Under the pieces are notes generated by a model. It searched no databases. It was given only the letters and a program-made list of their open reading frames with translations, and was not told the origin of the DNA. 64,000 nt of DNA from IMG/VR virus record IMGVR_UViG_3300042691_016049, positions 4,538 through 68,537 of that record; one strand, given 5' to 3'. Source of the DNA: a virus. Below, one piece after another: positions 12-33,778 of the stretch. A program made the translations under genes and the position numbers. Every line of letters starts with the position of its first letter. Within the stretch, counting starts at the first letter, position 1.

Positions 12-3000
12 GTGGGTGTCGGGCTTGGCGCTGGCGCTGGTGCGATTGAACCCCGAACCCAACCAGCCACGAAAGAAGAAGTCGCCGCCGCAGCCGCTGA
101 AACTCAAGATGTGGCAAGGCAGAATAAAGATGTGGCTCCCGCTACCGCTTCCCTTGTTGAAGGCCAAGCAGAACAGATCGTCCAAACACAAGAAACCCCC
201 GAACAGCGAGTAGCCCGCCTCCAAGAAGAAGCTACCGCAGCAGCAGAGATTCCACTAGAAGAGCGCCCTCTAGAACAAATCACTCAAGAGGCACAAGCCC
301 GAATCGCCGAACGTCAAGGCATAGAACAATCCGAAGTAGAAGAACCTCAAGGAACTAGGGTTGAAGCGGCGGCATATAAAGCTCCCGATGGCACGGTGTT
401 TTACGGGCCTTCCCACTTGGAAGCCATGGCCCAAGCCCGCGATGCTGGAAAGATTGATCAGGCTGAGATTGATGCAAAACAAGAAACTACCTCACGCGAA
501 ACTCCTGAGTTTGGATATTCCACCGAAGCAGAAGGATTTGTTAGTCGGGATCAGGCCGAAGCGATTGCCCGCGAGTCTGAGCAGCTATTGGTAGAACAAC
601 CAGCTACAGGAAAGCTTCACAGTAATGAAGTGGCATTGGATGCTTTTATGCAACCAGAGCCAGTGGCTGAAGAGGCCCTAGTTGTCGAGGAGGCTATAGC
701 AGAAGCGCCCATTACTACAACCAGAACCATTGCAGACTCTATCCGAGATAAGGACACATTTATTTATAACGGAATGCGTGGCGCTATCAGCGTTGAAAAT
801 GATGTTACTGTTTTCCGCCCATTTGGAACTCAAGAAAGATACGAGGTTCCAGTTAATCCCAATCAGACCATAGATGAGATTGAGGGTATTGAGTGGGCAA
901 GGCGCGGGCAACGCAGAGAAGGGCGTGTTGAGCCGCAGCCAGAAATTGCATCGATTGTTGAATCAGCACCAATTGTTTCTCAGGAAGAGGTTGATGCCGA
1001 AGAATCGGAATTTGAAGTTCCAGCGGCATTGGTCGAGATTGAAAAATCTCAGACGCTCAACGATCTCGCAGATCTTTTTGACACTGGCGAATCGGTTGTT
1101 TCTCAGGAGGGCAAAAGGGAGACAAAAGTTTCTGAAACCACAGAATTTTATCGCCAAGTCAGGCCCGATCAAATTGATCAAGCCAATCGGCTTATTGACA
1201 ATGCCCTAAGAATCATCGACGCTTTACCCATATCCGAAGACCAAAAGGCGGCTATGGCAGATCCATTCCTCCTTTTGGATCAAGATATTTCAAATTATGA
1301 AAGCAACCCAGAATACCAACAATACAAAGCGTCAATCCGCACGGAGGTTCGCCCTGCTGGCGAAGCTGTCGCGATCCCCGAAACTGAAGCAGAAGTTGCA
1401 GCAGGCGTCAGGGAGCTTGAAGCAAGGTCAAGAGCAGAAGCAGTCCGCTTAGAGCGTGAGGCGCAAGCTCGCCGCGTTGCGGCTGGTCAGGCAGCATTTG
1501 TCCCAGCGCCGCAGATCGAATCTCTTTCTCGCGTAATCCGCGCTGAAGCGCAACCACAAGAGTTTGAGGCTCTTGTCGAACAGGGGCTTGCCGAGGAATA
1601 CAACGGCCAGCAGATTCTAACTCAAGCTGGATTTGACGCGCTGCCACAAGAGCAACGCCCCCGCCTGACACCCGAAGCCCGAAAGATCCAAATCGATACT
1701 GGAGCCAGCGAGGCAGCAGCAGAAGCTATTACCAAAGGTCTTCGCATTGGAGTGGATCAAGTTCCGCCGAACGTGCGTATGCCAGAAGGATGGACTCTTG
1801 ATGGAGACATTTACATACCCCCCGCCGCCCAAGCGGAAGCTGGTAGAGTTGCAAGAGATGAAGAATCAATTAAAGAAATCGCCACTCAATACGGAGTTGA
1901 TAACAGGCTTGCGACTTCTGTATTTAACAACCAAATAGTAGAAGTTCCTTCTGGAAGATGGAGTGGCCCATCCAATTGGGTTGTTGAACAATATGGTGAT
2001 AAATTTTACGCCATTCCTCCAACAACTATCAAGAATCGCCTTGCCGCGCAGGGAGAATTGCGTAGGCTTTCAATGCTTGAAAGAGCGGCACTTGCTGGTA
2101 TCTTGACCGAGCAAAGACTGCTTACCGAAACCGATGCGAAACAATACATCCAAGACGCCTCAAAACAGGGTTATAGCGCAGACGAGATTAGTGCCGCCTC
2201 CACCGCTGCAGAAGCAACGTGGAATGAACGATTCGGAGGCGATGGGAACACTCGTCAAGTTGCAGGAGAAGTATCGCCAGAAGTTGTCGATGTCGCAGCA
2301 GAAGAAGCCGAGCGGTCAAAGAGGCCAAAAGTAACTGGCGGCACAGCCCTTCCCGCTTCCAAGCTTTTTGGAATGACGGCGCGTGAGGCCCTGCAATATT
2401 TGGCCGATCAAAACCTTGGGGCCGCACAGACGGAGACAGAGGGTAGGCCGCTTAACCTTTCTCAGCAAATGCAAAGGGCGGCTTCTATATTGGCCAAGCT
2501 TCCTCTTCGCATATTGGACGCTGACTTTATTAAAAAGGCCAGAGGTAGCAATAGAGCCTATCGTGCCAACGAAGGATTTATCCGCTTTCCAGCAACTCGT
2601 CGCGGAAAAGAATACTTTGAAGCACCAGAAACATTGGTGCATGAAGTTGGGCATACTCTTACGGCTGATGCTATAAGAAAGTATGTGTTTGATCGCGCAT
2701 TCCGCAGGGCAAGTGGCGACCAATATTTAAAGGCTTTGGACAATGCTCTAGCAAATCCCAACACTCCTGAGCAAATTAAAAGACTCATAAATCTCTACAA
2801 GCAAACCATTGATGAACTTGGGATTACTCAGGAATATTTTGGTGCTGGAGGGCTTGCAGGCACTGATGCAACCATATCGCAGAAGAAGGCTTGGAATCGT
2901 AAAAAACCGCTAATAAACAAGTTTACTGGTAAAAAAATTGGATGGTATGAGCTGTATGGTTTGGCAAACTTAGATGAGTTTGTTGCACAAGCTTGGAGCG

Positions 3001-6000
3001 ATTTAGAGTTCCAAGACATGCTTAAAAATATCAAGGTTCAAAACAAGCCATCCATCTACGAGCGTTTTGTTCGCATCATTCGGGATCTATTTGGTTTTGA
3101 TAGCGACACGATGGCCGCAGCGGTCATTGATGCATCTTATGCTTTGGCAGAGTTGGAAGCCCCAGCCACTGGTGGAACTATTGAGCAGAGAATAGCCAGA
3201 ACAACGGAAGCTAGGGGCGGTGTTGCCCCTGAACAGCAGGGAGTTCAGCCCATGGCTCCAGTTGAAGAATATGCTCCAAGAACAGAAGAAGAACAAAAGG
3301 CATTTGATAAAGCGTCTTCTAATAGGGTATTGGCGCGTAATCCACAACTCGCGGTAGCCGCAGTCAGGATGAAAAATGGCGAGATCACTGCTGGACAGTA
3401 TGCTGATTTGGTAGATGCCATCGATCCATTTACTGCCAAGGGCGCAGACCCGATTCCAACTGATGGCAAAATTAAACAATACATTCAAAGTAATAAGGTT
3501 GGTAAAGTTGGACTAATTGATAAAGATGGAAATCAAAGACTTCAATCTGGTGAGCAGTATGAGTTCAGAATAGATATTCCTACTTATAATGAATCAACTA
3601 AGGCTGGAGATACCGTATATGCAATAACAGCGCATGAGGCGGTTCCAGAAACTAGTCGCCGTGTTGGAGAAACATTCGCATATATTGGTGTGGCCAAAGT
3701 TACAAACCCAACATTTATGACCAGAGCAATCTCTGGTAAGGGTTCTGCCGTAGAAATTGCTATTGGAAAAAATAAATTCCCGCTGGCTACTGTCAAAGGA
3801 AACTACGAGCCAATCACCGAACTTCCAGCCAATATTAATGACCCCAATGTTTGGACTGAGGTTGGATATAATCCAATTCGTTCCAGTTTCTTTGTGGATG
3901 TTCGCAGCAAAGATGCTGTGGTTGGTGGGTCTGAGGCCATCATGGTTGGTTCCCGTGTGTTTGTTAAAGATGCTGTGTTGGAACCTCGTCCGACTGGAGT
4001 CACCATGGGCGAGCTTTATGCTCCGCAAGAAGTTCCGCAAGAAATCCCTACATTCTCTGAGGGAAGCCCAGAAGCAGCGACTCTTTCTGCCATGGCAGCA
4101 TCAATGGCCAAGGTGGATGCGGCGTCCGAGGCCAAAGGCCCGACAACCTTGAAGATTAGCGAGATAGCCTCTATCTGGATGGATCAGGGTGGTGACGCTC
4201 GCCAGCTTCAAGATCTTATCACGCAAAACACAAACCTTACACCAGCCAATGCAAGGCGTGTGGCCAATGCTATTGAGCGCCAATACGATATCCAGCAGTC
4301 GATTGCTTCGGCGTTTATCGAAACTCAGACTGGTCTTTCTGTGGAAGCGTTACCAGAAGGCGTGACACTTCCCAAGGAGGTTGATCCTGATCGTCCGCGA
4401 CCCATCATGCAGCGCCTGTTCGACGTATTCATGGGAGTCAGGGTTCCGCCCGTGAAGATCACAGTCAATGAGAAGACCGCGCTTAATCAGCAGATTCGTC
4501 TCAAGGCAGCGGCTACCCGCGAGGCCAAGAAAGCCCAAAAAGAGACGGCTAATGAGGTTGTTGAGATCATTAAGGCCATGGAGCTTCGTGGCCCCGTTCG
4601 CCCGAAACAGGCCCAAGCCCTTGCCAAACGTGCGGCCAAAGTTATTTGGACTAGCGAAAAGTCTATCGAATCTTTCACCGATTATGCTGCCAAGGTTGTT
4701 GAAAACACCAACTATGATGCCGATCTTCGCGAAGCAAGAGACGCACAGAAACGAGCCAAAGCACTTTCAAAACAGAAAAAAGTCGCCCTTTCTCCGCAGC
4801 GTGAGGTCTTGGATGATATCAGCAAAATCGCGGTTAACCGAATCGAAGATCCGAGGATGTTTGCCGAGATGGTTAACTACTATTTGAGTGGATTCAAGGC
4901 TGTCCTATCTCCTGACTATGTGGTTGTTCCTGATTTAGAAATGCAGGGCTATCTTGCCAGCGTCAAAGACGAGGAAATTCAAAGCCAGCGCGAGCTTGAT
5001 CGCGCCGTCAACCTCCGCCTTGCCGAGAAATATGGGGTTGATCCCGAAGAAGTAAATGAAGTTTTAGCGGCATTCGATGTCATCAAAGAAATTGAAGCCA
5101 GCGAGAATCGCGAGGCTATCGACAATCTTCTAACCGAGAAAGCCATTGAAACACGCGATGGACTCAGGGCTTACGATCCGACTCCGCTTCGCGAAGATCA
5201 ACGCAGGGTGGTTGAAGCTATGGCCAAGGTCGATCCAGCCGCCTTGGACGCCGAAGAGCGTCAGCGTTTTATCCGTATTGCCAACAATGTGATCTTTAAC
5301 AATCAAACCAATGGCGCGGAATACTTTATGTCTGTAGCCAATGGGCAGCAGAATGCCCGCATGGCCGCACAGGATAGTGACATGGTCGCTCGCAACAAAG
5401 CTTGGGTAAATCTTCTTCCTGCCTTTGGATCTATCAAAGCCGAGAAGACCATGAAGGGATGGGCGCTTGAGCTTCAATCCGTTTCCGACACTTTCCGCAA
5501 TGCTTTCGGCCTCAAATCCATGGCCAAAATTTACAAGGCCATGGGAATGCTTGATCTCAATTCAAGTTTTGCACAGGCCAACAATACTGTTGATCAGATT
5601 CAGGAAGAGATGGCCGAGTTCCATAATGGCCTTGAAAAGAAATATGGCGCAGTTTCCCGCAATCAAGATGGTCTATTGGCAGAGGGTATTGTTGGATTCC
5701 TAATTCAACGTGTTCCAAAAAAAGACGAAGCAGACTCTATCGCGCAACGCCGAGATCTAATCAGGCAAGACATCGCCAACCGCCGTCAGTCTGGAGAGCT
5801 TGATCGAATTGCCATGGCAGATCGCATCGAAACGATCCTGAATCAGATCGATGGAACTTCAACGCAAGATATTTTGGATAAACTCAAGGAAGCTTATCGC
5901 CCTAACTATGATTCATTAATCTGGTACAAGGATACGCTCCTTCCTAAATACAAAGACTTCCTTAAAAACTTTGATGAGAACTTCAACGATCAGGCCAACA

Positions 6001-7757
6001 ACTACGATAACCCTGATTATCTTCCAATTGCTTTTACTTCTGTTGGGCCTTCGCTTGCCATCACTAAAGAAGAAGAACAAGTGTTCTATGATCAGGTCTC
6101 TCTCCGCCCGAAACAATCCGCCAACACTATCAAGCGGGTTGATTACGCTACACTTCCAAAAGACCGCACCACAGGAACGCCAAAAGAAATTGAATTTAAT
6201 CTTCGCCGCAACGCATTCAACAGTCTTTCTGACCAGATTAACAAGGCTTATACTTCTGGTGCTTGGCAGCAAATCGCTTCGTTTATGAAGACTCCTGAGT
6301 CCACTCAGGTTTTCGGTGGACAGGCAAACAAAGACTTCTTTGTGGATCGTCTCAATCGTTTGCGCCTTTCAAGAATGCGGCGTGGGGCCATGAGTCGCGG
6401 AGCATTTGAGAAAGCCGCCGATGCGGTAGGCGTGATCTCCCGCAAGCTTGGCACTGGCATTGCCTTGGGTGGCGTCTACCAATGGATCAAGCAGCCTCCT
6501 GATCAGCTTGTTACGGCTTGGGGTAGTGGTGCGCGTGGTGAAGTATTGGCCCGTAACATTGCTCCATCTAATCAGAAAGCAGCCCGAACCCTACTCAACA
6601 AATTCTCAATTGGACGGCGTGGTGACGCTTCTGCTGGTTATAAATATATCAACCAGATGGAGGGCCATCAAAACCGACTTGAACGCTACTTCTCCGAAAG
6701 CAAATGGGAACAGGCCAAAGAACAGGCTGGCAAGATTGCCGATGTTTGGATGTTTGGTCTAAAGAAATCTGATTTTATTGCGGCCTCCGCAGCTTGGATG
6801 ACTTACTACGAAACCGAGCTTAACAAGCGGAATATCCAGATCACCGACTGGAACCAAGAAGCTGAATTGATTGACGGCGATAACGACAGACAGGAAGCCG
6901 CAGCCTATGCCGAGCAGATGACTGATATTTATCAGGGATCTTCCGATCCTACTCAGATGGCTGTGTTTGCCCAAAGCGGAAAGTCTGGAGCCGAGAATCT
7001 TCTTAAAGCTATGTTTGTCCCCTTCAACTCGTTTGCCGTTCAGCAACGCATGAGGCTTTATTCCGATGTCCGAGACGTTTTGAGTGGAGACAAGCGTTCG
7101 CGTGGAGGGCTTGCTGGAACAATTGGTGGCCTCATTCTTTTCCATGCTACTAAGCGATATGTCCTTCCTGTTATTTCTGGATCAGCAATTGGCGTCCTCT
7201 ATAGCTTGATGGGTGTGGATGTCGAAGAGCTAGACGAGGAGAAGCAGAAGGAGCGGGCCAGCAAGAACTTCCGCCAGTTTCTTGCTGATGCGAGTTCCAA
7301 CTTGCTCGTTGGTGGCATGCCGCAAGTTATTGAATCTCAGCTTATTAAGGCTTTCAATTATGCCGCTTATCTCACTGCCATGCAGCTTGAGGACGAATCA
7401 GTAATGGGCGACGATGGAGAACTTATCTCATTTGATAAGTATCAAAAGGAGCGTTCGCCACTCTATCGTTATCAGACTTATGGTGGAGCCATGAGCCTTG
7501 GCATGTTGGAGATTGGTTTTGATCAGGCAAAACAAGTTGCCCTAAATACAAAGATGCTGGCATCTCCTGAAGAAATGGAGGCATTTACTCCTGAAGAAAA
7601 ACGACTTCTTTATTTCTCCGCGCTTTCCGATTGGCTCTATCTCATGCGCCTAAACGACACTGACTTTGCGCGTTTGGTGCAGAAGGCCCGCCGCGACATG
7701 ATCAAATCCGCCGAAGAGCGCGAGAAAGAACTGGCCCGAATCCGCGCTGGGCGCTAG
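12..7757 (+). CDS. Giant internal virion / ejectosome-like (large polyvalent-type) protein with zincin metallopeptidase motif; 5' end probably outside the window
   Basis: 2581 aa open from the window edge. Acidic Ala/Glu-rich N-terminus, HExxH (LVHEVGH) with a downstream 'LDEFVAQ' third-ligand motif, and a helical C-terminus typical of podovirus injection proteins. Confidence 0.7.
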   Translation: MGVGLGAGAGAIEPRTQPATKEEVAAAAAETQDVARQNKDVAPATASLVEGQAEQIVQTQETPEQRVARLQEEATAAAEIPLEERPLEQITQEAQARIAERQGIEQSEVEEPQGTRVEAAAYKAPDGTVFYGPSHLEAMAQARDAGKIDQAEIDAKQETTSRETPEFGYSTEAEGFVSRDQAEAIARESEQLLVEQPATGKLHSNEVALDAFMQPEPVAEEALVVEEAIAEAPITTTRTIADSIRDKDTFIYNGMRGAISVENDVTVFRPFGTQERYEVPVNPNQTIDEIEGIEWARRGQRREGRVEPQPEIASIVESAPIVSQEEVDAEESEFEVPAALVEIEKSQTLNDLADLFDTGESVVSQEGKRETKVSETTEFYRQVRPDQIDQANRLIDNALRIIDALPISEDQKAAMADPFLLLDQDISNYESNPEYQQYKASIRTEVRPAGEAVAIPETEAEVAAGVRELEARSRAEAVRLEREAQARRVAAGQAAFVPAPQIESLSRVIRAEAQPQEFEALVEQGLAEEYNGQQILTQAGFDALPQEQRPRLTPEARKIQIDTGASEAAAEAITKGLRIGVDQVPPNVRMPEGWTLDGDIYIPPAAQAEAGRVARDEESIKEIATQYGVDNRLATSVFNNQIVEVPSGRWSGPSNWVVEQYGDKFYAIPPTTIKNRLAAQGELRRLSMLERAALAGILTEQRLLTETDAKQYIQDASKQGYSADEISAASTAAEATWNERFGGDGNTRQVAGEVSPEVVDVAAEEAERSKRPKVTGGTALPASKLFGMTAREALQYLADQNLGAAQTETEGRPLNLSQQMQRAASILAKLPLRILDADFIKKARGSNRAYRANEGFIRFPATRRGKEYFEAPETLVHEVGHTLTADAIRKYVFDRAFRRASGDQYLKALDNALANPNTPEQIKRLINLYKQTIDELGITQEYFGAGGLAGTDATISQKKAWNRKKPLINKFTGKKIGWYELYGLANLDEFVAQAWSDLEFQDMLKNIKVQNKPSIYERFVRIIRDLFGFDSDTMAAAVIDASYALAELEAPATGGTIEQRIARTTEARGGVAPEQQGVQPMAPVEEYAPRTEEEQKAFDKASSNRVLARNPQLAVAAVRMKNGEITAGQYADLVDAIDPFTAKGADPIPTDGKIKQYIQSNKVGKVGLIDKDGNQRLQSGEQYEFRIDIPTYNESTKAGDTVYAITAHEAVPETSRRVGETFAYIGVAKVTNPTFMTRAISGKGSAVEIAIGKNKFPLATVKGNYEPITELPANINDPNVWTEVGYNPIRSSFFVDVRSKDAVVGGSEAIMVGSRVFVKDAVLEPRPTGVTMGELYAPQEVPQEIPTFSEGSPEAATLSAMAASMAKVDAASEAKGPTTLKISEIASIWMDQGGDARQLQDLITQNTNLTPANARRVANAIERQYDIQQSIASAFIETQTGLSVEALPEGVTLPKEVDPDRPRPIMQRLFDVFMGVRVPPVKITVNEKTALNQQIRLKAAATREAKKAQKETANEVVEIIKAMELRGPVRPKQAQALAKRAAKVIWTSEKSIESFTDYAAKVVENTNYDADLREARDAQKRAKALSKQKKVALSPQREVLDDISKIAVNRIEDPRMFAEMVNYYLSGFKAVLSPDYVVVPDLEMQGYLASVKDEEIQSQRELDRAVNLRLAEKYGVDPEEVNEVLAAFDVIKEIEASENREAIDNLLTEKAIETRDGLRAYDPTPLREDQRRVVEAMAKVDPAALDAEERQRFIRIANNVIFNNQTNGAEYFMSVANGQQNARMAAQDSDMVARNKAWVNLLPAFGSIKAEKTMKGWALELQSVSDTFRNAFGLKSMAKIYKAMGMLDLNSSFAQANNTVDQIQEEMAEFHNGLEKKYGAVSRNQDGLLAEGIVGFLIQRVPKKDEADSIAQRRDLIRQDIANRRQSGELDRIAMADRIETILNQIDGTSTQDILDKLKEAYRPNYDSLIWYKDTLLPKYKDFLKNFDENFNDQANNYDNPDYLPIAFTSVGPSLAITKEEEQVFYDQVSLRPKQSANTIKRVDYATLPKDRTTGTPKEIEFNLRRNAFNSLSDQINKAYTSGAWQQIASFMKTPESTQVFGGQANKDFFVDRLNRLRLSRMRRGAMSRGAFEKAADAVGVISRKLGTGIALGGVYQWIKQPPDQLVTAWGSGARGEVLARNIAPSNQKAARTLLNKFSIGRRGDASAGYKYINQMEGHQNRLERYFSESKWEQAKEQAGKIADVWMFGLKKSDFIAASAAWMTYYETELNKRNIQITDWNQEAELIDGDNDRQEAAAYAEQMTDIYQGSSDPTQMAVFAQSGKSGAENLLKAMFVPFNSFAVQQRMRLYSDVRDVLSGDKRSRGGLAGTIGGLILFHATKRYVLPVISGSAIGVLYSLMGVDVEELDEEKQKERASKNFRQFLADASSNLLVGGMPQVIESQLIKAFNYAAYLTAMQLEDESVMGDDGELISFDKYQKERSPLYRYQTYGGAMSLGMLEIGFDQAKQVALNTKMLASPEEMEAFTPEEKRLLYFSALSDWLYLMRLNDTDFARLVQKARRDMIKSAEEREKELARIRAGR

Positions 7758-19416: not shown

Positions 19417-19809
19417 CGGGGTTTTCCCCTGCGGGATATGGCTCGACTCTTGAAGGTCTCCCCGTTTGCGCATGGCATAGGTTCCCCGCTTTCTCTGTAG
19501 CTTCCCCCATACCAACATAGCGCCCGACCAATCAAAGCCCCTCATATGGCCGTATAAGCGGAGACTCATCTATCAAGTCATGGGATCGGGGCGGGATGGC
19601 ATGAGACATGAGAGCCAACTATCAGAGCGGACGGGGGACAGCGCACGGCGGGGACAGCCAGCCGATAGGCGCAAACCCGCTCGCAAATCACAGACCCCAC
19701 CCCACGGGTGTTGACCCCACGTTCTCATTAGCGCGGGCACTGGCTCCACGAAAATACCTGTTTTCAAATATTGTTTGACAAAACTAATCTTAGTAACTAC
19801 ATTGCTAGT

Positions 19810-20382
19810 ATGAAACTCAAATACGCCAAACTTAAAAACAAAGAAGCCATCAAGATTTTCCGCAGAATTCTGGAAGAAATTGAGAAATTGCACCGATTGG
19901 AAGAAGAAGAGGTAGATTATTTCAGTTCTGCGTTTTGGAAAGAGATTAATCTTACTGATGGGTCAAAGATCTGCTATGAGAATTATCGTAGATGTTTACA
20001 GAGAAAACAGGCCAGAAGGGCTTATCGCGCCATGATGGACACTTATATGAAGCATTATGGAGAAAGGCTAGTAACTCCAGAAGCCCGCAGACGCCATGCC
20101 CAGAAGCGCCGTGTGTTAAAGTCCTCCAAGAAAGATTCCAAGGCTCGCTCAAAAATACTTGCTATCAATGTTGGCCCTTGTAAGTGTTACTGGTGTGGGG
20201 TTAAGTTACCAACTGGTGGACACGCAGACCATATTGTGCCATTGTCTAAGGGTGATAGCAACACCTGTGATAACATTGTAGCCGCCTGTAAGATATGCAA
20301 CGAAACCAAGAAAGACACGATGCCCAACTCCAAGGATCTACCGATTCACATGGAGCTTCAGTTGCCGCTGATCCACTCCTGA
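19810..20382 (+). CDS. HNH endonuclease (probably leaderless mRNA)
   Basis: 'CYWC..HADHIVPLSKG..N..NIVAACKICN'; promoter TTGACA-17-TACATT ends 6 nt before the ATG. Confidence 0.85.
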   Translation: MKLKYAKLKNKEAIKIFRRILEEIEKLHRLEEEEVDYFSSAFWKEINLTDGSKICYENYRRCLQRKQARRAYRAMMDTYMKHYGERLVTPEARRRHAQKRRVLKSSKKDSKARSKILAINVGPCKCYWCGVKLPTGGHADHIVPLSKGDSNTCDNIVAACKICNETKKDTMPNSKDLPIHMELQLPLIHS

Positions 20383-26464: not shown

Positions 26465-26958
26465 TCATCTGCTACTTGTTTCATCGCGGCGTAATGCGAA
26501 CCCTCCAGTTTGCCTGTCTTTAGCATTTTTTCTTCGGCGCGGTATTCCACTTCTTGGACGAAAACGGAGATCACAAGATTGATTGTTTCGCGATCTATAT
26601 CTTTAAGCTTCTCTTTCATTGCTCAAGCAATACTTCCTCTTTGAGTTTTTCGGCTTCGGGGTCGGGAGCGATGCACATCATCAGTGCTTGGCGGGCCTTC
26701 TCCAGTTGCCTTTCTTTTTGTTCTAGCATGATGTGAAGAATGCTTCTGTCGGCAAACTCTGAAACATTGCTATAGACTCGTCCAACTGTCATAGCGGTAG
26801 CGGCATTTCATCAAATGCTTCGCCGTTAAGTTTTAAAAATCCGATCATGGCAAGATCTGGGTCGCAAGCGCCGTCAACCTTCCAGTCTCCTCGCCTGATT
26901 GCGGCATCCATTACTTCATATAGCCTTGTGGCACAATTGCGCCATTTTGTTTCTTCGT

Positions 26959-27288
26959 TCATTTGATGATTCCTTCTTGGCGGGCAATGGCCTCAATCTG
27001 GCTCACATACTCGCGGGTACAATTGAATACTTCGGCAACGGCGGTGAAGTTGGTTTCGGGGTTGTTCATAATGAAACCCAGAATCTTGAACGCCCTTCCC
27101 CCGTTGGACAGACGCCTCTTGGTGGTCTTCTTGCGCCTCGCCCGAATGCCAGTCCGCTTCAACGCCGAAGCCATGGCATGGTAGCTTGATCCGTGTTTTA
27201 CGGCCAGTTCACCAATGGTGATTTCGGGGTTTTCCTGAATTTCAGTAGGTAGAGTAGATGTGTTGATCATATAATTATGTATTGACAT
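26959..27288 (-). CDS. HTH DNA-binding protein (sigma region-4-like C-terminus)
   Basis: 'TIGELAVKHG' and 'FTAVAEVFNCTREYVSQIE'. Confidence 0.7.
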   Translation of the reverse strand: MSIHNYMINTSTLPTEIQENPEITIGELAVKHGSSYHAMASALKRTGIRARRKKTTKRRLSNGGRAFKILGFIMNNPETNFTAVAEVFNCTREYVSQIEAIARQEGIIK

Positions 27289-27322
27289 TACACAGTAGCT
27301 GGGCTTTAATCGCCGTCAAATA

Positions 27323-27607
27323 TTAATATTTAGGGGGCGTTGGAACTTTCCGTTTCCGCGCCTTTCGCGGTTTACGGGCTTTCCTCTGCTCCCTGTGGAA
27401 CAATTTGTGGCACACCTTACAGAGGCAGATCAGATCGTCTAGGTGATTAAGTTCGTCTCCTTGGTGTTCGTAGGTTCGGTGGTGGGCCTGAAGTTCTAGG
27501 GGGCTATTGCATACCCCACATCTCCACCCGAATCGCTTCTTCACAAGTCGGCTTACTTCCCGCCAGTAGGGGGTCAGCAAGTAAACTTTGTAGGATTCTT
27601 TATCCAC
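27323..27607 (-). CDS. Small HNH endonuclease
   Basis: 'YL.TPYW..CGVC..LQAHHRTY..DLICLCKVCH'. Confidence 0.8.
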   Translation of the reverse strand: MDKESYKVYLLTPYWREVSRLVKKRFGWRCGVCNSPLELQAHHRTYEHQGDELNHLDDLICLCKVCHKLFHREQRKARKPRKARKRKVPTPPKY

Positions 27608-27659
27608 AGAAAGATATTACTCTCTTGTTGACTCTGTGCAACTCCAGTGTATTCTATGC

Positions 27660-27740
27660 ACTTCCTTGCATCTGGGTGCGGTTCCTTGCGCTGTCATGAC
27701 GTTGACTTTGTTTCGGGGCCGCACCCTCTTTCTTTCTTGA
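27660..27740 (+). ncRNA. Candidate small RNA: 12-bp stem, 29-nt loop, pyrimidine tail
   Basis: Promoter TTGACT-16-TATTCT at 27628-27655; stem 27674-27685/27715-27726. Confidence 0.5.
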
Positions 27741-27759
27741 CTCTTGTTTGAACATTTCG

Positions 27760-28212
27760 TAGGGTCGCGCTGTCAACGTCGAGTGACAGCGTAAAGTGGG
27801 CGCGACATACGCCACTAAAACCTGTGACCCTAGGTATGCAAGGATCAAACCGCCGAACGCTCAGGTCAGCCATCCGTCCCATAGCTTGAACACATTGCGG
27901 CGTGGGAATCCAGAGAAACTCTGGTAAGCGCGAGGGATAATACCCTCGGAGGTCGATTGCGGTTGTTTGAAGGTCTAATAGCGGCTTCGGAGCCTAGACC
28001 GTGATCTGTGGAATAAAGCGGAGGACTCACTCATAGGAATGAGAATCCAATCTTTTGACTACTGCCTTTGCCCCTGCGGGGGCGAGGTGTAGTCAATCGG
28101 TCGGATCTAGCTCAAGGAATTATTAATCCAATGACGGCGGCGATTCGGGGTTAAACGAAACGGAGCCGCAATGATAGGCGGGCGCACGGCTTTAGCCCGC
28201 CGAATACCCCCA
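27760..28212 (+). ncRNA. Candidate large structured ncRNA (~450 nt)
   Basis: No plus-strand ORF >60 aa; at least seven stem-loops visible by eye. Confidence 0.55.
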
Positions 28213-28279
28213 AAGAAAAAAGAAGAAAAAACATTGAACGCCCCGAAGGGGCTGTGGTCTATGTATCTATGGATACTTC

Positions 28280-28424
28280 GGAGAGGATCATTGAGGGCAA
28301 CACTGCGAATGCGGGGTTGAGCGACCTGAGTCCTCTCCCAATTTTTGGAGGTGGGGAGACCCGCATGCAAATGCGAAAGCTTCAAAGGCTGGGGGGCTAA
28401 TGAGGTTGCGCCACCCCGCCTCCA
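28280..28424 (+). ncRNA. Two tandem closed-stem RNAs, each ending in CCA before a T-run
   Basis: GGAGAGGA/TCCTCTCC (28280-28340) and GGAGGTGGGG/CCCCGCCTCC (28347-28424). Confidence 0.45.
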
Positions 28425-28433
28425 ATCTTTTTT

Positions 28434-28712
28434 ATGAAAAAACTACTACTACTGGCATTAGTCACTAGCGTTCAGGCCCAAGATGGTTCGTTTAATGGAA
28501 CCATCTATGATTTGGATTCGGGGAGGATACAGGTCATAAGTGGGTCTGTGGATATTAAGCCAAAAGAAGACACATACTTGGAAACGCTTCGCCGCATCAA
28601 TGCGGAGTTGGCCGAATCAAACGCCCGTATTAGTGCGGAGATTGCCGCAAGTAACCAACTTTCTGAGTTGCAAGAGCAGACCCGCCTTCTTCGCAAAATT
28701 GCCGACCAATGA
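28434..28712 (+). CDS. Secreted protein with Sec signal peptide
   Basis: MKKLLLLALVTSVQA|QD, then a coiled coil. Confidence 0.65.
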   Translation: MKKLLLLALVTSVQAQDGSFNGTIYDLDSGRIQVISGSVDIKPKEDTYLETLRRINAELAESNARISAEIAASNQLSELQEQTRLLRKIADQ

Positions 28713-30346
28713 GCAACTATCTGAACGTCAATATCCCCACCTTCTTTGCTTTCGTAGACGAGGGGTTTTTCTACGATCTGGAGCCAGAGGTGTCTCGCTC
28801 AAGACAATTGGTAGAAGTCTTTGCTTTTACTTCTATTCCCCAACGTTGCGGGATGTTCAGCGTGATGACCGAATACGGAAGCCAGCATGCCAGAGTCCCG
28901 ATCCATTACCTCCATACCGATGAAACTGGAGGCACATTTTACCCGCTGGACTGGATACAACTCTGGGACTCCATGAGCTACTATTGCTCAGTCAATATCT
29001 TGGATTACTGCAAAAACAGGGCGGCAAACATCATGCTTAAAAACAAAAGCTTTGAGGAAGCCAAGTATATGTTCACGCTAGATTGGTGTTTGGGGCCGCA
29101 ATATACATCTGGATACGGCGAGATGGCGGCTGGTCACAAGTGCTTTGGCGAGGACACAATGATTCTTTGCAAAGATGGGCTTTACCCAATTAAAGAAGTT
29201 GAGGTTGGGGATTATGTTTGGACACACAAAGGTAGATGGAAGCGTGTGGCCGCTATTCATAAAAGAGTTGGCGATTCGGTTTCCGTGAAAGCTGCTGGAA
29301 TTGCCAACTTTATAACAACAAAAGAACATAAAATTTTAACAACACTAGGATGGGAGCAAGTTCAAAATGCAGGATGCGTGACTCTTGCATCGCCGCAATT
29401 ACCTCTTAGTCGCCCCATTGATTGTCCTCTAGAAATCAATGGAGATTTCATGCGGTTTCTTGGGAGGTGGGTTGGCGATGGTTGTATTAATTACTCGCAA
29501 AAATCGGGAAGACCAAAGGGAGAGTTGGTCAACAGAATCATTGTTTCTTGTAATGCTCAAGAGGAAGAATCTCTTGAAAAAGACATTGATTTGTTTTTCA
29601 AAACAAAAACGCGCCAACAGGTTTCTGGAAACTGCTATAATTATTACATGGAAAACAAACAATTGGCTGAATGGATTTCAGACAATTTTGGTAGATACTC
29701 TTGGGCAAAAAGAATTCCAAACTGGATTTATTCTTTAGACAAAAGCCTGATTGAGGATTTCATCTATGGATATTTTCTTTCTGACGGTTCTATAACAAAA
29801 GACACCAATGAAAGATCAATAACCAGTGTTTCTAAAAAACTTGCTATTGGAGTAGCGATGCTTCTTCGGGTTTGTGGATATTATCCCAAAATCTATTATC
29901 GCGACAGAGATAACGATTTATGCAAAATTCACAAAACCACCTACAAGTGTAAGCCGAGATATTCCGTAAGGTGGATGATTGACAAAAAACAAAATACCTT
30001 CACAAAATATGCTGATGGTAGAATTACTTCTAAGATAAAATCTTTAGAAGATTTTGGCACCGCCCTTCTTTATGATCTTTCAGTTGAGGACGATCACTCG
30101 TACATTGCAGATGGCGTGATAGCGCACAACTGTGGTCATGTATTTGCGGGTAATGGGCAATACTTCATCCAGCCCAACAATCGCGTGTTATGGATGGATG
30201 GAGGATCGTTTATTGCCAAGAAGTTTCCGCAAAAGCCCGACTGGAAAGTATTCAGCCAAGAGTTTAGTTGTGAACACACTGGGAGCCGTTGGGTCAGTGA
30301 AAGCGAGGAGGAGCTATGGTTTTACGACTTCAAAGAGCAGGGATAG
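28709..30346 (+). CDS. Conserved phage hypothetical protein (~215 aa extein) containing an intein
   Basis: Extein 'YLNVNIP..QLWD..YMFTLDW..GHK|CGHV..GQYFIQPNNRV'. Confidence 0.85.
   Translation: MSNYLNVNIPTFFAFVDEGFFYDLEPEVSRSRQLVEVFAFTSIPQRCGMFSVMTEYGSQHARVPIHYLHTDETGGTFYPLDWIQLWDSMSYYCSVNILDYCKNRAANIMLKNKSFEEAKYMFTLDWCLGPQYTSGYGEMAAGHKCFGEDTMILCKDGLYPIKEVEVGDYVWTHKGRWKRVAAIHKRVGDSVSVKAAGIANFITTKEHKILTTLGWEQVQNAGCVTLASPQLPLSRPIDCPLEINGDFMRFLGRWVGDGCINYSQKSGRPKGELVNRIIVSCNAQEEESLEKDIDLFFKTKTRQQVSGNCYNYYMENKQLAEWISDNFGRYSWAKRIPNWIYSLDKSLIEDFIYGYFLSDGSITKDTNERSITSVSKKLAIGVAMLLRVCGYYPKIYYRDRDNDLCKIHKTTYKCKPRYSVRWMIDKKQNTFTKYADGRITSKIKSLEDFGTALLYDLSVEDDHSYIADGVIAHNCGHVFAGNGQYFIQPNNRVLWMDGGSFIAKKFPQKPDWKVFSQEFSCEHTGSRWVSESEEELWFYDFKEQG
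29141..30130 (+). mobile_element. Intein (330 aa) with LAGLIDADG homing endonuclease
   Basis: N-terminal CFGEDTMI, block B 'TKEHKI', 'FLGRWVGDG', 'FIYGYFLSDG', C-terminal 'YDLSVEDDHSYIADGVIAHN', +1 Cys. Confidence 0.93.
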
Positions 30347-30606
30347 GAATCGCGCTACTTATTGCAAGTGGTTGTGTTTCTTATCCACCTCGTCCCTATC
30401 CTTGGAATTTCCCACCAGAAAGAGAATGGAATGCCCCACTAGAAACAAGCTGGGTTAATGCCGTAGATGCTTTTCGCAACTGGACGGCCCCCAAGGGCAA
30501 AATCTGGAATCCAATTATTCGCCAGTACGAACCTGACTTTGGTTATGAAATTGAACTTATGAAGGTTCTTCCTCCCGATCTTGAGGAACATGAATTGTAT
30601 CAATAA
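30316..30606 (+). CDS. Putative lipoprotein
   Basis: Hydrophobic stretch with lipobox 'IASGC'. Confidence 0.55.
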   Translation: MVLRLQRAGIGIALLIASGCVSYPPRPYPWNFPPEREWNAPLETSWVNAVDAFRNWTAPKGKIWNPIIRQYEPDFGYEIELMKVLPPDLEEHELYQ

Positions 30607-30919
30607 CCCAACCCTGTTTACGGGCCTCTCGTCCATTCTGATGGCACCAATCATGGCAATCCCTGCAAAGCGCGGCAAACAGACTGTAGTCGCAAAGGTA
30701 GCGCCCATTTCGTCCTGCCTTGTGATGAATGTCCTGACTCTTCGTCTTTTTGCATTTCTCGCACATTGGATGCAATGCCAAGTAAGCTTTCTTAACCTTT
30801 GCATACTCATTGTATTCGCGCTGGCGCTTGGGGGATGCATACCGCAACCTTCCGCTGCGCTTGAGGCTTTGCGTTCTTTTTAGTGGAGTTTTTGAACGGA
30901 GTGGAGTTTTTCTTGTCAT
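30557..30919 (-). CDS. Small HNH-family protein
   Basis: 'CEKC..QDIHHKAGR..LCRDCHDWCH'. Confidence 0.75.
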   Translation of the reverse strand: MTRKTPLRSKTPLKRTQSLKRSGRLRYASPKRQREYNEYAKVKKAYLALHPMCEKCKKTKSQDIHHKAGRNGRYLCDYSLFAALCRDCHDWCHQNGREARKQGWVIDTIHVPQDREEEPS

Positions 30920-31508
30920 ACCTACTATGATCACTTGGAATGATTACAACCAGATGAAGCCCGACAGAGAGGGAATCTATCTCATTAAAAACGACGAGTC
31001 AAATCCACCGTTAAAGTGGGCCTGCCACTACCATCCCCACCATGGATGGAGTGGTGTTGGACATATACTTGAGCGTGTGATTAAGTATTGGAGTCCATGG
31101 CCAGATTCAAAGTAGTATTAACTGTTATCAATGAAGACTCCGTTTCCCCATTCGTGGTTGGCCCACGCTTCCGCAGAGGAAGCCCCATGCCGATGGAAGC
31201 ACTCTACGCTGAACGCGGCGGTTACTTCTTCGACCCAGAATCAGAAATCGAGATGGCCAGAGATTGCTGCAAACTTTTTGAAAAGTACATCAACCAAGCA
31301 GAAACCAAGAAAAAGAAAAAATGAGCGATAAAACCAAAACATTCATTGTGTGCCATGGAGACAATGTTGTCGAACTTCATGGGTTTGGACTGAGTCACGA
31401 AGCGGCAACTCTTCAGGCCGACCAGCTAACAAAGGCTGGAAAGCGCAACGTCCGCATTCGACTGGAAGATCCGATTCATCCAAGCTGGCCGATGAACTTC
31501 GACGCACA

Positions 31509-32473: not shown

Positions 32474-33778
32474 ATGCACGAAGTCATTCACGAACCCTCG
32501 GCTGAAACTGCAATCCTTTCCTGCCTCTGCCATGCGCCGACAGAGGATCAACGCGAGATCCTTCTATCAATTAAGGAAGATCATTTCTACCTACAGGAGA
32601 ATAAGATCATCTTTCGGGCGATCATGCGGGCTATCGCCAAGGGGATGCAAGCCGACATCATAAATGTTAAGTCGGAAATCGAAGCGGCCAACGAATACGA
32701 TATCATTGGTGGTGAACAGAAGATTGCAGAAGTGGCAACTTCGTGTGTAGCCCACAACAACTGGAAGCGTTACTATCCGAAGCTGGAAGAAGCCCGATAC
32801 AGAAGGTCGTTGGAATACTTGGCCAATGACATGGTTCACAAGGCCAGAGACCGCGAACTAAAGGTCGAGGAACTCAAGAACTGGTCGGAAACCACGGTAA
32901 TGCGAGCCGATTATGAGATTGATGACGGAAACAAGCTCTCCATTGTCAACGCCCTAGACCGCGCTGCCCAGAATATTGAATCAACGATTGCTGGGAAGCC
33001 CTGTGTCGGCATCCGTACTGGATTGACTCCAGTAGATGATTTGCTGATTTTTGGAATGCGTGGAGGAGACATGGTTGTGGTTGCTGCCCGTCCAGCAGTC
33101 GGAAAGACATCCAGCGCCATGCAGATTGCAGAGCATGTGGCTCTTAATGAACAAAAACGAGTGTTGGTATTCTCTTTGGAGATGACCAGCGTTGCCCTGA
33201 TGGAGCGTCTTATCCGCTCCCGTGCGCGTGTGCGAGCCGCAGACATTCTCGCGAGGACGGTAACCCCGCAACAAAAGAAAGCCTTGGCACAGGCCACAAC
33301 AGAGATCCAGCAGTCCAAGATTCTGTGTGACGATAGCTCCGCCAAATCAATTGGCTACCTAAAGGCCGTTGCTCGTCGCGCCCATCAGCGGGAACCGCTC
33401 GATCTCATCATTATCGATTATCTTCAGCTTGTCAGGGGAGATAGTCGGCGTGGAAAAGAAAATCGCGTGTGCGAGGTGGAAGAGATTAGTGGCGGCATCA
33501 AGGATCTTGCAAAGACACTTAAGGTTCCAGTTCTTGTTTTGGCCCAACTTAATCGTGACCCCGACAAGCGCGGAGGACGCCCAAGCTTGGCCGATCTTAA
33601 GGGATCAAGTGCAATTGAGATGGATGCGGACATTGTAATCATGCTCCACAGCGAAGAGGCTGCTGATCATGGCCAAAATCCCACCATGGAATTCATTGTG
33701 GCAAAGCATCGTGAAGGCCCGACAGGTGTGGCCAACATGATATTCAACAAGGCGATTACCCGATTTGAGGCGGCTTAG
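32474..33778 (+). CDS. dnaB: DnaB-like replicative helicase
   Basis: 'AARPAVGKT', 'FSLEM', 'IIDYLQL', 'LAQLNR', 'IEMDAD' and 'KHREGPTG'. Confidence 0.96.
   Translation: MHEVIHEPSAETAILSCLCHAPTEDQREILLSIKEDHFYLQENKIIFRAIMRAIAKGMQADIINVKSEIEAANEYDIIGGEQKIAEVATSCVAHNNWKRYYPKLEEARYRRSLEYLANDMVHKARDRELKVEELKNWSETTVMRADYEIDDGNKLSIVNALDRAAQNIESTIAGKPCVGIRTGLTPVDDLLIFGMRGGDMVVVAARPAVGKTSSAMQIAEHVALNEQKRVLVFSLEMTSVALMERLIRSRARVRAADILARTVTPQQKKALAQATTEIQQSKILCDDSSAKSIGYLKAVARRAHQREPLDLIIIDYLQLVRGDSRRGKENRVCEVEEISGGIKDLAKTLKVPVLVLAQLNRDPDKRGGRPSLADLKGSSAIEMDADIVIMLHSEEAADHGQNPTMEFIVAKHREGPTGVANMIFNKAITRFEAA

Follow-up and report, generated by a model that had tools for sequence, protein, structure and literature searches.

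Replication of ColE1-type plasmids is controlled by a primer RNA, RNAII, together with an antisense RNA, RNAI. Same-strand antisense RNAs of phages are known from P1 and P7 (c4) and from P4 (CI RNA), and at the R-loop origins of T4 and T7 replication is started by a transcript, not by an origin-binding initiator. The locus described here shares features with each of these systems. It is an 826-nucleotide (nt) gap at the divergence point of two operons, located at 27608-28433 of the window, as we call the whole 64,000-nt stretch analyzed (bases 4538-68537 of the 68,537-base IMG/VR record IMGVR_UViG_3300042691_016049, which has direct terminal repeats and is rated 100% complete). The source is an uncultured freshwater-type phage. 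We show that the gap constitutes a cassette of plus-strand non-coding RNA elements, among them a core RNA of ~400 nt in which at least nine helices are maintained by compensatory change, and, upstream of it, a putative small RNA matched to the core RNA by predicted antisense pairing. In related phages the cassette alternates exactly, at one place, with a gene that probably encodes a DnaD-like replication initiator or helicase loader. Positions are those of the window, and all elements of the gap lie on its plus strand unless stated otherwise.

As in P1/P7 c4 and P4 CI, regulator RNA and target stand in tandem on one strand, and matched changes of regulator and target, the basis of heteroimmune types in those phages, are found here as well. 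However, the window gives no match to the Rfam C4 family, the target lies at the 5′ end of a non-coding RNA of 400 nt and not in an ant/icd mRNA leader or at a termination site, and no lysogeny genes are seen in the phage. The likeness to the R-loop origins of T4 and T7 lies in transcript-started replication, which is proposed below, whereas their transcripts are not known to be conserved folded RNAs or to have an antisense partner dedicated to them. The phage RNAs GOLLD and ROOL (10.1101/2024.12.08.627333) are comparable to the core RNA in length (several hundred nt), in their many covarying helices and in the proximity of tRNA or transfer-messenger RNA (tmRNA) genes, which in our case is seen in relatives; the core RNA differs from them in having no model match, in having a partner antisense RNA and in alternating with a protein gene. 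Covariation in intergenic regions of uncultured phages has also been surveyed in the same data source, IMG/VR, yielding 8,495 unnamed structured-RNA candidates (Fremin et al. 2023, PMC10690425). That catalogue groups short pieces, with bit scores of 20-200, without assigning them a function, and pieces of the gap could be among its entries. A literature search found no description of this RNA or of its exchange for an initiator gene.

A core RNA maintained by compensatory change

An earlier note on this DNA, made from the sequence alone, had described the gap as a non-coding RNA locus with dense stems and with no plus-strand open reading frame (ORF) above 60 amino acids. The locus is real in this sense: no ORF in it is convincing, and none on the plus strand inside 27608-28433 exceeds 49 amino acids. 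Minus-strand ORFs in the gap comprise 92, 64, 62 and 54 amino acids, and frameshifting indels of 1-2 nt at 28051-52 and 28062, where conservation is highest, speak against a coding function. The minimum free energy of the plus strand is −316.3 kcal/mol, compared to −279.0 ± 7 for 20 shuffles (z = −5.33), and folding of the minus strand is weaker (z = −3.64). The statement of the note that the locus is not tRNA, tmRNA or RNase P agrees with ARAGORN, which detects no tRNA or tmRNA in the window, and with Rfam 15, which at gathering score yields 0 matches in the whole window and none at the core RNA in 23 related loci. At E ≤ 10, only microRNA-type noise (E 0.25-7.7) was obtained for 1501 nt and for the 466-nt core, and only noise for the homologous RNA of locus L045. 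A blastn search of INPHARED phages at the 'distant' setting returned nothing similar to the gap, and a search of sequencing runs gave small shares only, with ≤0.15 of words matched.

To collect relatives, we retrieved 80 IMG/VR loci with the intein-bearing protein encoded to the right of the gap; blastn of the gap against them produced 93 aligned pieces and revealed a modular region. Two covariance models, R1 for the 5′ half and R2 for the 3′ half of the core RNA, were built on the window's clade and then used to align all loci. R1 gave 48 matches in 94 sources and R2 gave 44 on the plus strand, including clades that share only ~60-70% of the sequence. Seven weak minus-strand matches of R2, on palindromic hairpins, were removed by a rerun at E ≤ 1e−6, and the L045/L047 clade was not found by R2 even at E ≤ 0.01. 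In the 5′ half, 96.7% of 1353 cells are paired and both sides are changed in 27 of 38 pairs (mean of 500 shuffles 15.8, none as high). In the 3′ half, 98.9% are paired and both sides are changed in 16 of 36 pairs (shuffle mean 4.1; again 0 of 500 as high). Controls in which the structure was slid along the alignment were 31-46% paired. Alignments fitted to R1 and R2 favor the structure; the helices had been first seen in plain MAFFT alignments, before model fitting, as exemplified by GATTGCGGT/ACCGTGATC versus CATCGACGT/ACGTTGGTG, GTTCACTA/TAGTGAAC and GAGATAATT/AATTATCTC. RNAalifold run on the plain MAFFT alignments recovered the structure only partly, because the stems are misaligned in them. 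Checking related loci for covariation had been suggested by the earlier note, and compensatory changes are what this check found.

The core RNA ('RNA2'), with predicted ends at 27768 and 28172, has helices 27795-99/27812-16, 27822-27/27859-64, 27878-82/27902-06, 27910-15/27919-24 and 27931-36/27943-48 in its 5′ part and 27955-63/27998-28006, 28026-29/28040-43, 28057-75/28080-96 and 28138-42/28166-70 in its 3′ part, the last of them based on alignments read by eye only. Among the stems listed in the earlier note, CCAGAG/CTCTGG (27910-24), CGAGGG/CCCTCG (27931-48) and GACTAC/GTAGTC (28055-96) are kept by covariation in relatives. The stem GGTCTA/TAGACC (27972-28000) is present, but only in the window's clade, where it competes with the longer covarying helix 27955-63/27998-28006, and TAGGGTCGC/GTGACCCTA is shared by the window with only a few loci; in most relatives the arms read TAGCCT.. 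and GTGA--CGAGG. Within R2, there is little support for 28009-12/28047-50 (one pair changed on both sides) or for 27981-82/27992-93, which never varies. Conserved G.U pairs are numerous (for example, one pair is UG in all 36 of 36 rows, and three pairs are so in 24-28 of 30) and would become A.C mismatches on the opposite strand, which assigns the RNA to the plus strand. The peripheral hairpin 27910-24 carries insertions of 69 or 100 nt in some loci.

The covarying helix 27822-27/27859-64 encloses a loop of 24 nt, AGGTATGCAAGGATNAAACCGCCG (27833-27856), the columns of which are invariant in 39 sequences. The most conserved stretch, AGGTATGCAAGGNTNANACCGCC, occurs as an exact motif in 44 IMG/VR stretches. 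In 185,579 prokaryote species genomes, one per species, the invariant motif occurs twice, with about one occurrence expected by chance; since it is found elsewhere only at chance level, the core RNA is confined to this group of uncultured phages. We considered and rejected a host-derived RNA, because both species-genome matches, about the chance number, lie inside protein-coding genes (on the antisense strand of a gene for a 586-amino-acid membrane protein, and in a PheT-like gene).

A small partner RNA and an alternative protein cassette

Three sigma70-like promoters had been placed in the gap by the earlier note. One of them, P1 (TTGACT-N16-TATTCT, 27628-27655), is the only promoter-like site obtained in a scan of 26500-29500, and relatives retain its TTGAC and the TA..CT hexamer; the other two, at 27738 and 28233, fail the −10 rule of the scan but are conserved in relatives. 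The site at 27738 belongs to the putative promoter region of the core RNA (27738-27776), in which TTGACT-N17-TAGGGT overlaps TTTGAAC-N17-TGTCAA, an arrangement conserved in the alignments. Downstream of P1, a small RNA of ~75 nt (predicted ends 27662 and 27737) would consist of a 5′ tail, a terminator-like hairpin (27674-27726) and a U-rich run (27727-37). The stem of this hairpin, 27674-85/27715-26 (GGGTGCGGTTCC/GGGGCCGCACCC), starts ~20 nt downstream of P1 and is followed by the U-run TCTTTCTTTCTT; a terminator scan passed over this hairpin, its loop being longer than 8 nt. In L052, L109 and L112, which represent three clades, the stem has changed from GGGTGCGG/CCGCACCC to GGGCGGGG/CCCCGCCC with the pairing kept. 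Among loci with the core RNA and sufficient sequence upstream, 30 of 42 have such a terminator.

The loop of the terminator hairpin holds segment A (27686-27706), which is complementary to segment B (27772-27794), where the core RNA begins with a stretch of ~23 nt. This complementarity falls in two blocks, and both sides covary as matched sets. Predicted duplexes of cognate A and B have a mean energy of −34.3 kcal/mol (range −39.7 to −29.8; 30 loci, 23 distinct combinations), compared to −22.8 kcal/mol (standard deviation 6.4) for non-cognate pairs. At least seven specificity classes can be distinguished, and such unrelated ones as GCGCTGTCA..GACGTTGAC, GAGCGGATGT..TCTATCAAGAC and GGGTTCTGG..TTCATCAC each fit their own target. 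In the whole 68.5-kb genome, B is the best plus-strand partner of A (−33.4 kcal/mol versus a mean of −10.8, standard deviation 3.4). The stem CGCTGTCA/TGACAGCG (27768-91) of the earlier note is real; the better conserved pairing of its 3′ arm is that with the upstream segment 27686-94. A further complementarity links the 5′ tail of the small RNA, TCCTTGCAT (27663-27671), to the segment ATGCAAGGA (27836-44) of the invariant loop (inverted repeat I9; 9 nt, 100% complementary). Across 19 distinct small-RNA types, the complement between tail and loop, with G.U allowed, measures 9-11 nt in 13, 8 nt in two and is lacking in four. The earlier note had pictured a large phage non-coding RNA with satellite small RNAs, and indeed the core RNA, the upstream small RNA and the leader at the downstream end of the gap all show compensatory changes and match no Rfam family.

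Loci that lack the core RNA have, in place of the small RNA and the core RNA (27608-28225), a minus-strand gene for a protein of 165-180 amino acids. Its representative L004:2288-2830(−) matches five PHROG families of replication-initiation or DnaD-like helicase-loader proteins with E-values from 1.4e−13 to 8e−7 (phrog_4707, 1.4e−13; phrog_186, 1.3e−12; also phrog_270, 428 and 4221). The best fold match of its structural model, which is of low confidence (predicted local distance difference test, pLDDT, 55.8), is the Geobacillus primosome protein DnaB (E 5e−3), with RctB domain 1 and the DnaD N-domain among lower-ranked matches. Taken together, these matches suggest that the gene of the alternative cassette is probably a DnaD-like replication initiator or helicase loader. 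As for iterons, the alternative cassette offers only weak 16-nt doublets as candidates.

Among the window and 93 loci, 48 have the RNA only, 14 the initiator gene only, none both and 32 neither, and because the loci are related, the 48 and the 14 are not 62 independent events. The 32 loci with neither are mostly cut short upstream or belong to the distant L066-L081 group. At the level of genomes, no initiator homologue was found at E ≤ 10 in those of the RNA type, namely, G000 (the genome of the window; 100% complete), G003 (96%) and G006 (91%); the protein-type genomes G004 and G005 (both 100% complete) contain one or two initiator copies and no RNA match. G000 and G005 are collinear at ~80% nucleotide identity, and the swap between them is bounded by the helix-turn-helix (HTH) gene on the left and the first rightward gene on the right. 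ORFs present in G000 only gave no initiator match, and many ORFs are without assigned function. In G004, two diverged initiator-like copies with ~45% identity to the query lie in tandem (G004:C1:35562-36397; L130, L131). A replication origin had been named in the earlier note as a case opposed to its RNA locus; this perhaps holds in part, in a different sense, in that the RNA cassette alternates with a probable replication-initiator gene.

Other elements of the gap and its neighbors

The core RNA is followed by the GC hairpin GGCGGGC/GCCCGCC (28177-28201), noticed already in the earlier note, which covaries, reading GGCGGGGC/GCCCCGCC in some loci. It has no U-run behind it and is present in most loci, being absent in L045, L047, L083, L106, L116 and L121. 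Next comes a purine/A-rich tract and then a P3-like motif, ATTGAAC-N17-GTCTAT (together 28207-28262; motif 28233-62), kept in loci with and without the core RNA. In the general form TTGAAC-N17/18-GTC(T/A)(A/T), the motif is seen at 27747-27776 and 28233-28262 of the window, at 4941-4975 and 5664-5695 of L045 and in the upstream regions of L057, L047 and L116. In L045, TTGAAC..GTCTAT stands before the leader, before tRNA-Met and before the first rightward gene, and in some clades the TTGAAC motif is also found inverted, facing the leftward operon. It could represent a local promoter type or an operator for the neighboring HTH protein; it is reminiscent of promoters of extracytoplasmic function (ECF) sigma factors. 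As a genome-wide phage promoter TTGAAC-N17-GTC was rejected, with 5 matches versus 3.1 expected and no enrichment of TTGAAC, and we keep it as a local motif.

The hairpin TTCGGAGAGGA/TCCTCTCCCAA (28277-28341; inverted repeat I8) is variable and marks the site of 210-420-nt inserts in relatives, which follow position 28338 in L002, L005, L018, L021, L022, L029, L040, L044 and L064. L045 has ~550 nt of gene-free sequence at 5090-5640. This stretch and the inserts share conserved blocks, for example ACGTTTCGATGCGCGTC..GCGCGGGAATAAACGA, have no Rfam match and may be further RNA modules. Four copies of the short word (C/T)(C/T)CGGAG or ACGGAG lie in the gap (27945, 27986, 28160 and 28276), partly in loops; the word may be bound by a protein or be due to chance. 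A sponge for CsrA, an idea suggested by a resemblance in GGA motifs, was not adopted.

The gap ends with a leader folded as a three-way junction (28345-28433): an outer stem 28345-56/28414-25, a GNRA-capped hairpin, a second hairpin and a U-run abutting the ATG at 28434. The U-run, TCTTTTTT, stands behind the outer stem, which is terminator-like by eye and covaries; the scan omitted this stem as a terminator because its loop exceeds 8 nt. In a plain MAFFT alignment of 41 distinct sequences, the helices of the leader are 98.2% paired and 11 of 26 pairs are changed on both sides (shuffle mean 3.2; 0 of 500 as high). The leader is found in both locus variants, with and without the core RNA. The same zone collects RNA genes in relatives. 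Upstream of the corresponding gene, distant relatives have tmRNA, detected by ARAGORN and accompanied by tRNA-Ile (L067, 4913-5619; L077, 4831-5495), or tRNA-Thr (L072, 5923-5995), and tRNA-Met lies just after the core RNA of L045 (5005-5079). In one survey, tmRNA is present in 2.3% of phage genomes (PMC9004378).

To the left, the gap is adjoined by minus-strand genes for an HNH endonuclease (27323-27607; 94 amino acids; PHROG HNH families down to 1e−9, Pfam HNH 21.2 bits) and for a 109-amino-acid HTH protein (26959-27288; Pfam HTH_24 23.5 bits, weak Sigma70_r4; traced in relatives by tblastn), beyond which runs a series of small leftward genes. The earlier note had joined both proteins to the RNA as a possible RNA-protein system, which is not borne out. 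HNH and core RNA are not linked in either direction: eight core-RNA loci have no HNH match (L045, L047, L049, L051, L053, L054, L057 and L063), and an HNH allele is present in loci devoid of the RNA (L004, L009, L017, L024, L027, L028, L031, L041, L058 and L061). The HTH gene is the neighbor of both locus variants and hence not specific to the RNA. An IscB/omega-RNA system was rejected as well, because the HNH protein has only 94 amino acids (IscB combines RuvC and HNH in ~400-500), is encoded on the opposite strand and is missing from some loci with the RNA; its score against NCBIfam IscB, 25.4 bits at a cut-off of 175, reflects generic HNH similarity.

To the right lie the first rightward gene (28434-28712, plus strand), which is conserved in relatives and encodes a 92-amino-acid protein with a signal-peptide-like N-terminus, the intein-bearing gene of a 545-amino-acid phrog_3704 protein (28709-30346, plus strand) and, 4 kb away, dnaB (32474-33778). 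Primase, large terminase and tail fibers are also encoded in the genome. The intein contains a LAGLIDADG domain; RNA-library contigs of relatives run from 29139 to 30154 without the intein insert, and most relatives lack it, since their match to 28709-30346 spans only ~645 nt. Two more HNH endonuclease genes are found in the window (19771-20382 and 30557-30934), the first of which has no tblastn match in the sister genome G005, where it may be absent or too diverged. Homing-type elements are common in this phage. A giant ORF (12-7757) that continues upstream of the window exceeds 2,580 amino acids and has no PHROG match.

Possible roles of the cassette

We tentatively propose, as a reading that is possible and short of probable, that the small RNA and the core RNA form an RNA-based module for initiation and control of replication, resembling RNAII/RNAI of ColE1 with the regulator in tandem. 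With somewhat greater reserve, we suggest that a lineage of tailed double-stranded DNA phages might have replaced its protein initiator or helicase loader by a folded, origin-activating RNA of ~400 nt, with the tandem antisense small RNA setting rate and incompatibility classes and with the whole cassette swappable for a DnaD-like gene. The core RNA would then take over the job of the missing initiator, as RNAII does in ColE1. If transcription ran on through the structured RNA and into the purine-rich tract, an RNA-DNA hybrid would form. This hybrid would either serve as a primer for DNA synthesis or open the duplex to the DnaB helicase and the primase that the phage itself encodes. In the manner of RNAI, the small RNA would attach to the core RNA at its 5′ end, and also at its key loop, and misfold or block it, thereby setting the replication rate and the incompatibility class.

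The resemblance to ColE1 extends to three features: a long structured RNA next to a replicon control region; a short, terminator-bearing RNA complementary to its 5′ end (here in two covarying blocks, no better target being present in the genome); and segments of pairing that change rapidly and in a matched way, leading to specificity classes. A fourth, a replicon without its own initiator protein, may be shared as well, as the three RNA-type genomes lack a homologue of the sister-type initiator. There are also differences. The phage regulator lies upstream on the same strand, A and B being separate, whereas that of ColE1 is an overlapping cis-antisense RNA, and the long RNA of the phage has an invariant loop and an ornate covarying core. 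Moreover, a persistent hybrid, its cleavage by RNase H and the use of Pol I are features of ColE1, whereas the phage system is known here from sequence alone, and the element in question is the genome of a tailed phage, 68.5 kb in length, which itself encodes DnaB and primase.

Several observations weigh against a replication module. The core RNA itself lacks a terminator with a U-run, and its ultra-conserved core and invariant loop go beyond the needs of a mere primer and fit a protein- or ligand-binding RNA. The small RNA is dispensable, as 12 of 42 core-RNA loci have none of this kind, and the match between its tail and the loop is limited to the window's clade. The ends of both RNAs are predicted from promoter-like and terminator-like sequences, and the transcripts themselves are putative: in contigs from four RNA libraries, the depth over the core (for example, a contig of 679 nt over 27867-28262) resembles that over the flanking genes, and these contigs may include DNA carry-over. 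With respect to the alternative cassette, assignment of the initiator is based on matches to the N-termini of PHROG families and on the low-confidence model; the L004-type protein has no match in Pfam, NCBIfam or PDB sequences, and all 11 of its database homologues are labeled 'hypothetical'. Quite apart from the relatedness of the counted loci, two cassettes at a mosaic hot spot can exclude each other without having a function in common. Finally, the turn in GC skew at the gap coincides with a turn in gene orientation.

A serious competitor, which we likewise regard as possible though not probable, is that the core RNA acts in trans and has nothing to do with replication; it might, for instance, be a scaffold for a host or phage protein or a decoy of one, or play an anti-defense or translation-related role, with the small RNA as its dedicated antisense regulator and the cassette residing in a recombination hot spot at which an initiator gene is kept by other phages. 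The invariant loop and the near-invariant junctions, preserved across clades with wholly changed helices, are typical of partner-binding RNAs, and variable insertions of 69-100 nt in one peripheral hairpin are known from ornate RNAs. The tmRNA and tRNA genes that relatives hold in the same intergenic zone (L067, L077 and L045) and the 12 loci with a core RNA and no small RNA also fit such a role. Nevertheless, it leaves unexplained both the absence of an initiator homologue from all three fairly complete RNA-type genomes and the exactness of the swap, and no gene for a partner protein is linked to the RNA.

It is unlikely, in our opinion, that the whole stretch is one long cis-acting leader of the rightward operon (an attenuator, an antiterminator or an element of processive antitermination) which controls read-through into the 92-amino-acid gene, the intein-bearing gene and dnaB. 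Such a leader would account for the location of every element on the strand of the downstream operon, for the lack of a terminator behind the core RNA and for the last element, a hairpin with a U-run ending one base before the start codon in every variant. However, 14 loci lack both the core RNA and the small RNA, yet their leader and downstream genes are ~90% identical, and so the operon does not need these RNAs. Moreover, the core RNA is set apart from the leader by a promoter-like motif of its own, which is conserved and in L045 directly precedes the gene, and the small RNA has a promoter and a terminator of its own, both predicted.

Still less credible is a protein-independent origin, the signals of which are features of DNA, such as cruciforms or single-strand hairpins, and not RNAs. 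The gap does lie at a divergence point and at a local minimum of the cumulative GC skew, the A/B inverted repeat flanks a promoter, and one perfect DnaA box, TTATCCACA, is present at 27600-27608, where it overlaps the HNH start codon. Yet the conserved G.U pairs are numerous on the plus strand only, the plus strand folds better than the minus strand, and helices spread over 400 nt with invariant loops fit a tertiary fold of RNA. DnaA boxes, of which the window has six versus 1.58 expected (one of 100 shuffles reaches six), are scattered; a cluster of them at the gap was rejected, only one of the six being at the locus, and no iterons were found at the gap by a repeat search. Finally, despite the tmRNA at a loosely syntenic place in distant relatives and the known occurrence of large phage RNAs near tRNA genes (GOLLD, ROOL), a highly diverged member of a known family (tmRNA, RNase P RNA, GOLLD/ROOL or group I intron) can practically be dismissed given the negative Rfam 15 and ARAGORN searches described above. 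A possible resemblance of AAACCGCCG to J11/12 of RNase P would favor such a membership; a presumed likeness to the S-domain of RNase P was not adopted.

Even if the link to replication fails, the core RNA is a new family of large phage RNAs that has strong covariation support, an invariant loop and a partner RNA dedicated to it. Only a few RNAs of this sort are known, and the functions of those that are, GOLLD and ROOL, have been a long-standing question. If the proposed replication module is true, structured RNA and protein would be interchangeable solutions for the start of replication in closely related viruses, and a plasmid-style antisense control circuit, in a new tandem layout on one strand, would operate in a phage genome of the lytic type. 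The locus would then offer a testable system for the substitution of origin-binding proteins by RNA and for the evolution of pairing specificity classes.

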